Virus record (IMG/VR): IMGVR_UViG_2851949629_000009 | Span: 1-23,710 of that record | Direction: 5' to 3' (one strand) | From: a virus | Taxonomy: Duplodnaviria > Heunggongvirae > Uroviricota > Caudoviricetes | DNA: 23,710 bases | In this document: in pieces, positions 1 through 3,000 of the stretch | How the letters are laid out: the number at the start of each line of letters is the position of its first letter | How positions within the stretch are numbered: the first letter of the stretch is position 1 | Position numbers: made by a program

Positions 1-3000
1 TCACCCGCGATTAACCAACAGCCAGACCAGCAGACACGCCACCACCGGCACAGCAAAATCCATCAGACTTGCCACATCCCACGCGCGTGGGTCAAAACCG
101 CCCCGCCACGGCATATTCATACGCTTGCCATGCCCGAACATTTCAATCCAGCGATATTATGCCTGGGGTGTTCAAGCGCAATGAAGTACGTATTGTATCT
201 TCGCGATTTTTTATAGGCTAATTGACGCGCAATTCTGAGCGGGGAGCGCACAATCAAACAGCACAGAATGGATCGCTGATATGTAAGCGTAAACCGACTG
301 CCGTATGTAGCCATTAAGCCAGTATTGGTAACGTAGGTGCCCACCTTTTCAAACTAGTGGACGCCTGTTATGGAGCAAAAAACATTATCCGCAGAACCCC
401 GCAGATCATTTTCAAATAATTTTAAACTTCAAATGGTTAAACTGGCTTTGCAACCAGGAGCCTCTGTTGCCCGTATCGCCCGGGAACACGATATCAATGA
501 TAACCTCCTGTTCAAATGGCTCAGGCTCTGGCAGAACGAAGGGCGTGTTTCGCGGCGTCTTCCGGTAACGACCTCTTCTGACACTGGCGTTGAATTATTA
601 CCTGTAGAAATAACGCCGGATGAGCAGAAAGAACCTGTGGTGGCCATTGCGCCATCTTTATCCACTACCACTCAGACCAGAGTCAGTGCCAGCTCCTGCA
701 AGGTGGAATTCCGTCACGGTAACATGACGCTGGAAAATCCATCGCCAGAGCTGCTCACGGTGTTGATCCGTGAACTGACCGGGAGGGGAAGATGATCTCA
801 CTCCCATCAGGTACCCGTATCTGGCTCGTTGCCGGCGTTACCGATATGCGTAAATCCTTCAACGGACTGGGAGAACAGGTACAACATGTGCTGAATGATA
901 ATCCCTTCTCCGGTCACCTGTTTATCTTCCGTGGCCGACGGGGTGACACCGTTAAAATTCTTTGGGCTGATGCTGATGGTCTGTGCCTGTTCACCAAACG
1001 CCTGGAGGAAGGCCAGTTTATCTGGCCTGCGGTACGTGACGGCAAGGTATCCATTACCCGCTCGCAACTGGCAATGCTCCTCGATAAACTGGACTGGCGT
1101 CAGCCAAAAACATCCAGCCGTAACTCACTGACAATGTTGTAAAAAACTCCTGACCGCATTATAAAAACGGTCATGAGTCAGAAATACCTCATTCGCATCG
1201 CAGAGCTGGAAAGGTTGCTCTCTGAGCAGGCTGAAGCCCTCCGTCAGAAAGACCAGCAACTGAGTCTGGTTGAAGAGACGGAAGCCTTCCTGCGCTCTGC
1301 ACTGACACGTGCCGAAGAAAAGATCGAAGAAGATGAACGGGAAATAGAACATCTGCGGGCTCAGATAGAAAAACTGCGCCGGATGCTGTTCGGTACCCGT
1401 TCTGAAAAACTGCGTCGTGAAGTTGAACTGGCTGAGGCTCTGCTGAAACAACGTGAACAGGACAGCGATCGTTACAGTGGGCGGGAAGACGATCCTCAGG
1501 TTCCCCGCCAGTTGCGACAGTCGCGCCATCGTCGTCCGTTACCGGCACACCTTCCCCGTGAAATACACCGCCTGGAGCCAGAAGAAAGCTGTTGCCCGGA
1601 GTGTGGCGGTGAGCTGGATTATCTGGGGGAAGTCAGCGCTGAACAGCTGGAACTGGTGAGCAGTGCCCTGAAAGTGATCCGCACAGAACGGGTAAAAAAA
1701 GCCTGTACAAAATGTGACTGTATTGTTGAAGCACCGGCGCCGTCCCGCCCGATAGAGCGTGGTATCGCGGGCCCCGGATTACTTGCCCGCGTGTTCACGG
1801 GAAAATACTGCGAACATCTGCCACTGTATCGTCAGAGTGAAATCTTTGCCCGCCAGGGTGTCGAACTGAGCCGGGCCTTACTCTCCAACTGGGTTGACGC
1901 GTGCTGCCAGTTAATGACACCGGTGAATGATGCCCTGTACCGTTATGTAATGAACACCCGCAAGGTTCACACTGATGACACACCGGTAAAGGTACTGGCA
2001 CCGGGTCAGAAAAAGGCGAAAACAGGGCGTATCTGGACGTATGTCCGGGATGATCGCAATGTGGGTTCGTCATCTCCTCCAGCGGTCTGGTTCGCGTACT
2101 CGCCGAACCGGCAGGGGAAACACCCGGAGCAACACCTCCGCCCCTTCCGGGGTATCCTGCAGGCGGATGCGTTCACAGGTTACGACAGGTTGTTCAGTGC
2201 AGAACGTGAAGGTGGTGCACTGACAGAAGTTGCGTGCTGGGCCCATGCCCGGCGAAAAATCCACGATGTATACATCAGCAGCAAAAGTGCGACGGCAGAA
2301 GAAGCCCTGAAGCGAATCAGTGAACTGTACGCCATTGAGCACGAAATACGCGGGTTGCCGGTGTCTGAACGCCTGGCGGTCAGGCAGCAGCGAAGCAAAG
2401 TGTTACTGACGTCGCTGCATGAATGGATGGTGGAGAAGAATGGTACGCTGTCGAAAAAATCCAGACTGGGCGAAGCGTTCAGCTATGTACTGAATCAGTG
2501 GGATGTCCTCTGTTATTACAGTGATGACGGTCTGGCGGAGGCGGATAATAATGCTGCGGAAAGAGCGCTTCGTGCAGTCTGTCTCGGAAAGAAAAACTTT
2601 ATGTTCTTTGGCAGCGATCACGGCGGCGAGCGTGGAGCACTGTTGTACGGGCTGATCGGCACCTGCCGTTTGAACGGTATCGATCCGGAAGCGTATCTGG
2701 GCCATATCCTGAGCGTACTGCCGGAATGGCCTTCCAACCGAGTTGATGAACTCCTGCCATGGAACGTAGTACTCACCAATAAATAAGCGTCAATACGGTG
2801 CTCCGTTGACGCTTACGGTTAACGGACTTGAACCGCTACCCATTCGCTTACAAGGCGACTGCTCTACCATTGGAGCCAAACCAGCATATTTGGCGGGACA
2901 GCGTGGACTCGAACCACGATAAGAAGGTTAACAGCCTTCCGTAATGACCTTTATACGACTGACCCAAATAAAAAAAGCCACCGTTGCAACTTAAGAGTCA

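Follow-up and report, generated by a model that had tools for sequence, protein, structure and literature searches.

The 23,710-nucleotide stretch analyzed here (the window; IMG/VR record IMGVR_UViG_2851949629_000009, positions 1 to 23,710) is 100% identical to positions 4920198-4943907 of the chromosome of enterotoxigenic Escherichia coli (ETEC) strain 214-4 (NZ_CP025840.1), an ST/CS6 isolate from human stool. It belongs to a lambdoid prophage that sits between torT and torS, the HK022 attachment site, and carries two insertion sequences (IS) of the IS66 family. The first of these (copy 1) is an intact, ISEc23-like element lying between two pieces of phage DNA that are far apart in intact relatives: on its right, a phage-21-type late-control module ending in a truncated tRNA-Thr gene, and on its left, a small gene that is found behind the tail fiber genes of related phages. 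In our assessment, the late operon of this prophage, from the pinholin to the tail fibers, was lost through an IS-mediated deletion of approximately 20-29 kb that left the ISEc23-like element on the junction (probability roughly 0.88). The original prediction for this locus, made from the sequence alone, had proposed either such a deletion or a recombination between two IS copies that removed the late region downstream of the antiterminator gene Q, which the comparisons presented here support.

An intact IS66-family element without a target-site duplication

Copy 1 contains three consecutive open reading frames (ORFs), tnpA (helix-turn-helix), tnpB (IS66 Orf2-like) and tnpC, all with Pfam domains of the IS66 family (Table 1). 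It extends from 283 GTAAGCGTAAACC... to ...GTTGACGCTTAC 2816, and its imperfect terminal inverted repeats start with GTAAGCGT (283 GTAAGCGTAAACCGACTGCCGTAT... and ...ATACGGTGCTCCGTTGACGCTTAC 2816), displaying the GTAAGCG ends of the family. The termini were mapped by comparison with six other ISEc23-type copies, comprising canonical ISEc23 (loci L006-L008) and the same variant as copy 1 (L009-L011), all six of which start and end at the same bases as copy 1.

With the termini placed in this way, copy 1 is flanked by GCTGATAT on the left and GGTTAACG on the right, which are identical at only 3/8 positions; the 8-bp duplication left by a simple insertion is thus lacking. Suitable controls are present in the same strain. 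Two copies of the copy-1 variant in 214-4 (L009 and L010), each with 3/2534 differences from copy 1, are bordered by a perfect 8-bp duplication, GGTATGGA for the chromosomal copy and CAGTCACC for the one carried by plasmid p214_4_132, and the second IS66-family element of the window (copy 2, ISEc43-like) is likewise enclosed by a perfect duplication (AGGTAGGT). A canonical ISEc23 copy (L006) has TGATAAGG on both sides, and duplications were found at four of the six comparison copies overall. Because the termini are shared by six copies, and the siblings and copy 2 have duplications, the absence at copy 1 is real and not a mapping error. This bears out the original claim that copy 1 has no duplication, which would have fallen had a matching 8-bp repeat emerged once the true termini were known; one was looked for and none was found. 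Copy 1 resembles ISEc23 in its three ORFs, termini and 2.5-kb length, and its sibling copies generate 8-bp duplications, while the missing duplication and a mosaic left end set it apart. Copy 1 therefore belongs to the IS66 family, yet is not a simple insertion.

Two technical explanations for the unmatched flanks were rejected. A duplication hidden by mis-mapped termini is incompatible with six copies that have the same ends, four of them duplicated. A longer IS had been suspected from BLAST matches that continue 10-17 nt beyond the IS end in other genomes, and these were attributed to chance or to target-like similarity of the flanks.

The mosaic structure of copy 1 was also considered. Compared with canonical ISEc23, copy 1 is 97-100% identical over approximately 2.25 kb, but only 63-87% over the first ~250 bp (window 283-540), a stretch that covers the left inverted repeat and the beginning of tnpA. 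The idea that copy 1 is a unique hybrid of two elements, and thereby proof of recombination between IS copies, was rejected since the same mosaic occurs with duplications elsewhere, including several ETEC plasmids (O169:H41, O27:H7) and other sites in 214-4. The mosaic is consequently older than the deletion event. Three single-nucleotide polymorphisms are private to copy 1 and uninformative on the route by which the junction arose.

Other IS66-family copies without duplications were encountered during these comparisons: an ISEc23 by a truncated yjhR gene in strain E24 (L007, 589-3120) and a copy of the copy-1 variant in strain C311 (L011, 3201-5734). In strain STEC388 (L012, 34083-36777), a portal gene and a gpT gene, both truncated, border the IS66-family element ISCro1. 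Deletions associated with IS66 look common, both in prophages and outside them. Separately, a phage capsid gene of strain E8 contains an unrelated ISEc23; the left flank of this insertion, GGTTAAAG (L008, 581-588), agrees at 7/8 positions with the right flank GGTTAACG of copy 1. Together with the 10-17 nt BLAST extensions seen at several loci, this likeness may reflect a weak target-site preference.

Copy 1 truncates a tRNA-Thr gene behind a phage-21-type late-control module

The DNA to the right of copy 1 is closely related to phage 21, with 98.5% identity over 2817-3545 (OL657228.1), and a prophage carried by strain SCU-171 is even closer (99.6% over 2817-3100). In the phage 21 record, Q21 is followed by pR' (-35, Q-binding element, -10, start site and pause element), tR', tRNA-Asn, tRNA-Thr, the S21 pinholin/antiholin, the R21 signal-arrest-release (SAR) endolysin and the spanins. 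Coordinates of the late-control features were carried over from this annotated record with a fixed offset of 1616. The window retains the same order of elements as far as position 69 of tRNA-Thr, with both Q-binding octamers conserved, and differs from phage 21 in that the IS replaces everything past this position (S21, R21, the spanins and beyond). The arrangement typical of phage-21-type Q antitermination, i.e., Q and a pR' with ATTGAGCA and AATGAGCA, followed by tR', is therefore complete, and a function of the region in late control is predicted from homology. The Q protein (WP_000512806.1) has the same accession in SCU-171. The tRNA-Thr gene had been placed directly beside Q in the original prediction, which was incorrect, as pR', tR' and an intact tRNA-Asn gene intervene.

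The intact tRNA-Thr(UGU) gene reads GCTGGTTTAGCTCCAATGGTAGAGCAGTCGCCTTGTAAGCGAATGGGTAGCGGTTCAAGTCCGTTAACCAGCACCA, and ends with ...CCGTTAACCAGCACCA in both phage 21 and SCU-171, so that the tRNA-like sequence next to the IS is a genuine remnant, as had been suggested. In the window, the gene stops at ...CCGTTAACC (position 69) and is joined directly to the IS end GTAAGCG. Truncation of the 3' end by the IS was thus correctly recognized at the outset, although its extent was overstated as 7 nt in addition to the CCA end: the total loss is 7 nt including CCA (A70, G71, C72, the discriminator A73 and C74-C75-A76). The remnant scores 43.8 bits in Rfam compared to 61.5 bits for the intact gene and shows a gap in the acceptor stem, but still passes the gathering threshold of 29 for RF00005, which explains why pipelines continue to annotate a tRNA-Thr. 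Both ARAGORN (2811-2886) and the Prokaryotic Genome Annotation Pipeline (PGAP; 2813-2886) call a full-length tRNA by borrowing bases from the IS end, and the resulting ARAGORN structure has two mismatches and a wobble pair at the top of the stem, formed with IS bases, and no CCA. The full-length annotation is artefactual and masks the truncation. The E. coli threonyl-tRNA synthetase uses G1-C72 and C2-G71 as identity elements. The remnant has neither of these pairs, no complete 7-bp acceptor stem, no discriminator and no 3' CCA, and is very probably non-functional. It also carries an A9G substitution (window 2877; TTTAGCTC to TTTGGCTC) relative to phage 21 and SCU-171, which might be a neutral variant or might reflect decay once the gene had been inactivated.

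Table 1 Features of the window, with coordinates in window positions.
Feature	Coordinates	Strand	Basis or remark
Left flank, distal end of late operon (small putative membrane-peptide ORF and upstream leader)	1-282	-	Sequence matches to relatives
Left 8-bp flank of copy 1, GCTGATAT	275-282		Read from sequence
IS66-family element copy 1, ISEc23-like variant, 2534 bp	283-2816	+	Pfam, PGAP (ISEc23 family), shared termini
tnpA	370-795		Within copy 1; Pfam HTH_Tnp_1, 7.5e-15
tnpB	792-1142		Within copy 1; Pfam TnpB_IS66, 1.1e-36
tnpC	1173-2786		Within copy 1; Pfam DDE_Tnp_IS66, 2e-96, plus zf-IS66, LZ_Tnp_IS66 and DDE_Tnp_IS66_C
Right 8-bp flank of copy 1, GGTTAACG	2817-2824		tRNA-Thr positions 62-69, minus strand
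3'-truncated tRNA-Thr(UGU)	2817-2885	-	Positions 1-69 kept; compared with phage 21 and SCU-171
Intact tRNA-Asn(GUU)	2891-2965	-	ARAGORN; Rfam 55.3 bits, equal to intact relative
Phage-21-type late-control region	2966-3050	-	Homology to OL657228.1
tR' terminator	2966-3013	-	Transferred from phage 21
Pause element and transcription start	~3008-3015	-	Transferred from phage 21
-10 element	3022-3027	-	Transferred from phage 21
Q-binding element, TGCTCATT/TGCTCAAT	3027-3042	-	Both octamers confirmed in sequence
-35 element	3045-3050	-	Transferred from phage 21
Antiterminator Q, phage 21 type	3057-3545	-	Pfam Phage_antitermQ, 8.8e-25; WP_000512806.1
IS66-family element copy 2, ISEc43-like (control)	11611-14151	-	Perfect 8-bp duplication AGGTAGGT at 11603-11610 and 14152-14159
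Integrase int	22637-23710		Ends 94 bp short of torS

The left flank matches the distal end of lambdoid late operons

What the first 282 bp of the window represent, a point left open in the original prediction, was resolved by comparison with relatives. An ORF of 46 codons (141 to 1, minus strand) encodes a hydrophobic peptide (MFGHGKRMNMPWRGGFDPRAWDVASLMDFAVPVVACLLVWLLVNRG) without a Pfam match, and PGAP annotates positions 1-251 as a frameshifted hypothetical gene. The complete segment is matched at 97-98% identity in 14 complete genomes besides 214-4, while its first 192 bp match approximately 1,900 records at roughly 90-95%. Its position in these relatives is informative: in a prophage of STEC388, a 97.9% identical segment follows J, Lom and a tail fiber gene and precedes tail-fiber-assembly remnants and the host junction; phage phiSTEC1575-Stx2k (93.7% identity) has the order J, Lom, tail protein, left-flank gene, dinI and int; and in lambda-like phage ev207 the match is located past the tail fiber genes. 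Judged by this shared position, the left flank corresponds to the last small gene after the tail fiber genes of lambdoid phages. Uninterrupted relatives read on past the site of the IS end as ...GGATCGCTGATAT/TTATCCTTTTGTCGG (i.e., ...GCTGATAT/TTATCCTTTTGTCGG), toward the tail fiber, Lom and J.

Collinear flanks and the estimated extent of the deletion

Each flank matches its uninterrupted relatives as far as the IS end, the right flank to position 2817 (phage 21 and SCU-171) and the left flank to position 282 (STEC388 and the Stx2k phage). Q, the tRNAs, the late genes and the distal small gene follow one another in this order on a single strand in SCU-171, STEC388, phage 21 and the Stx2k phage. 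In the window, both flanks are on the minus strand and in the orientation of an intact phage with only the IS between them, i.e., they are collinear and lack the intervening genes. A structure of this kind, in which an intact IS with unmatched flanks occupies a collinear junction, is the footprint classically left by IS-mediated deletions.

The amount of DNA lost can be estimated from SCU-171, where an intact 43-kb prophage occupies the torS-torT site; it shares the excisionase and Q accessions as well as the tRNA pair with the 214-4 prophage. Here, 28.8 kb separate tRNA-Thr from torT, encoding holin, endolysin, spanin, terminase, head and tail proteins as well as cdtABC, and the equivalent interval of STEC388 is approximately 21.5 kb. 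Taken together, these values indicate that roughly 20-29 kb were lost from the 214-4 prophage. The original prediction had pointed to this position as the site of late-operon cargo, which holds for holin, endolysin, spanins, terminase, head and tail genes, as these follow in phage 21 and the intact prophage. The same did not apply to stx, of which there was no sign; behind the Q21 module, phage 21 has S21 and SCU-171 has a lysis cassette.

The distal cargo of SCU-171, at the same attachment site, comprises cdtABC for a type I cytolethal distending toxin (L005, 44236-46336) together with a myovirus-like baseplate and tail module; prophages with a shared int/Q21 backbone therefore vary in cargo.

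How the junction may have formed

Overall, these observations fit the following history. A phage-21-like lambdoid prophage is integrated at the HK022 site between torT and torS. An IS came in by transposition, after which the DNA on one side was deleted flush with the IS terminus, the step to which the footprint at copy 1 attests. The deletion took essentially the whole late operon, beginning with base 70 of tRNA-Thr and reaching as far as the leader of the small gene behind the tail fibers, and with it the pinholin, endolysin, spanin, terminase, head and tail genes; the outcome is one intact IS whose two 8-bp flanks stem from two different target sites. Two routes lead to this product. We favor RecA-dependent recombination between two directly oriented copies that had inserted at GGTTAACG, within tRNA-Thr, and at GCTGATAT, respectively, but only marginally, and the choice is close to a coin toss. 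The slight edge derives from the IS66-family load of 214-4, with about 35 places on the chromosome, and from the two hits that this prophage took within 24 kb; a further 7 places are found on the 132-kb CS6/STp plasmid, and approximately 19 are of the ISEc43 type. One IS66-family copy of the strain is inserted beside an Ag43 autotransporter gene.

Alternatively, a single ISEc23-like copy could have undergone intramolecular transposition to a target ~20-29 kb away, with excision of the interval and without a second copy ever being present. This route is a serious contender that we place somewhat short of even odds. It predicts an identical product, namely an intact IS with one old and one new flank at a collinear junction, and nothing distinguishes it from the two-copy route. 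Duplications are missing at three of the eight IS66-family copies inspected, and one IS66-family element, in STEC388, lies between truncated phage genes, so that rearrangements associated with IS66 look common; the 7/8 likeness of GGTTAACG to GGTTAAAG further suggests that the right flank is a genuine target chosen by the transposase. On the other hand, we know of no demonstration of adjacent deletion by the IS66 family, and the high copy number in 214-4 makes a transient two-copy state plausible. The stronger claim, that one copy attacked a distant target in the same molecule and that the junction is sequence-level evidence of adjacent deletion by IS66-family transposases, is more tentative still, and we lean against it.

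The remaining explanations dispense with an IS-mediated deletion and are far less probable. Inversion or translocation through a distant IS copy, which would have displaced rather than removed the late region, gains some appeal from the many IS copies in the genome and from the mutually inverted orientation of copies 1 and 2, yet we consider it highly improbable, given that the flanks are collinear rather than inverted and that queries with the flanks of relatives found no reciprocal junctions. Recombination or inversion with copy 2 in particular is excluded, as this element is inverted, only 90% identical, diverged at its left end and in possession of its own perfect duplication. An assembly artefact is slightly more remote. 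IS66-family repeats occupy ~35 chromosomal places, and repeats of 2.5 kb are able to mislead assemblers, but the 214-4 genome was assembled from PacBio RS II long reads (PMC6446980), which normally span 2.5 kb. A mis-join also implies a reciprocal false junction, of which none was found in the 214-4 records with the flanks of relatives as queries, and a random mis-join is not expected to bring together both ends of a late operon, correctly oriented to each other, inside a prophage bounded by torT and torS. Least probable of all is a deletion by another mechanism, followed by insertion of the IS at the junction and decay of its duplication, which has nothing specific in its favor: this needs five substitutions within 8 bp, yet the IS differs from its siblings at only 3/2534 positions and both flanks match relatives exactly up to the IS ends.

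Several points weigh against IS-mediated deletion of the late operon as proposed here, or limit the precision with which it can be described. To our knowledge, the transposition chemistry of the IS66 family has not been established. The distal end of the 214-4 prophage is unlike that of SCU-171, which has cdtABC there, and the size of the deletion is thus an estimate. A displaced late region would carry IS ends with ...TGGTGCTGGTTAACG and GCTGATATTTATCC.... Queries were built for both junctions expected from an inversion, a translocation or an assembly swap (late-region side, GGTTAACG and IS left end; IS right end, GCTGATAT and its continuation). Neither reciprocal junction was present at ≥80% query coverage in 5,426 complete genomes, including 214-4 and its plasmids, although the whole 214-4 genome was not scanned for a displaced late region and the queries used the flanks of relatives (SCU-171 and STEC388), meaning that a flank differing by more than ~15% would be missed. 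In the same genomes, no ancestral or intermediate state was found, i.e., an IS with a duplication in tRNA-Thr or at the distal site, and both copy-1 junctions and the copy-2 junction are unique to 214-4. The order of events and the route given here are therefore reconstructions.

Further decay of the prophage remnant

The remnant, approximately 26 kb in length, shares the integration site and an int gene adjoining torS with other HK022-site prophages (PMC6814406), from which it differs in its reduced size and its two IS66-family insertions. Carey et al. 2019 (PMC6814406) showed for this attachment site that a promoter borne by the prophage at the torS junction drives torS and alters trimethylamine N-oxide (TMAO) respiration. 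The remnant retains its int/torS end, and such an effect of the prophage on torS may persist. Directly left of the window, PGAP annotates tail-fiber-assembly pseudogenes and torT, and the 2.9 kb between torT and the window are mosaic with a full match in 214-4 only. The early-left region contains more PGAP pseudogenes, a frameshifted ead/Ea22-like gene and a truncated hypothetical gene (window 19930-20534 and 20742-20876), consistent with general decay of the prophage.

The gene for the N antiterminator (window 14194-14502; Pfam N_peptide, 2.8e-38) starts 42 bp downstream of the end of copy 2, and this element probably separates N from pL. If so, an IS66-family element would have crippled the prophage twice, independently.

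Implications for prophage decay in ETEC

Deletions bounded by IS elements are a textbook way for prophages to decay, and good descriptions exist of both the IS66 family and the Q21-tRNA module. The phenomenon is ordinary, while this instance is undescribed: in the literature on IS66 deletions and strain 214-4, no description of the copy-1 junction was found, and the 214-4 genome paper is silent on the locus. A close parallel comes from O157 prophages, which Ooka and colleagues reportedly found in 2009 to be diversified by small and large IS629-associated deletions. There, the IS reportedly likewise sits exactly at the deletion junction of a lambdoid prophage, without a duplication, and leaves the prophage defective. 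The junction in 214-4 differs in that it involves an IS66-family rather than an IS3/IS629 element, an ETEC host, the complete late operon and a start point inside a tRNA gene.

For strain 214-4, a widely used ETEC reference and challenge strain, the finding is of modest importance; it explains why the prophage is defective. With no genes for lysis, packaging or the virion, and with Q, pR', tR' and tRNA-Asn retained, the prophage would be unable to lyse its cell or make particles. The locus is also of value for annotation, as the full-length tRNA-Thr reported by PGAP and ARAGORN is really a remnant completed with IS bases. Beyond this strain, it provides one clean example, with same-strain controls, of an IS66-family element at a deletion breakpoint, which could help to show how this family, so far poorly understood, causes rearrangements if ancestral isolates are found. 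Should a single copy of the element have produced the deletion, then copy 1 and copy 2 together would mean that IS66 expansion is actively disarming prophages in this ETEC lineage, with the immunity region, the int-proximal end by torS and the Q21/tRNA-Asn module as the parts that are kept.

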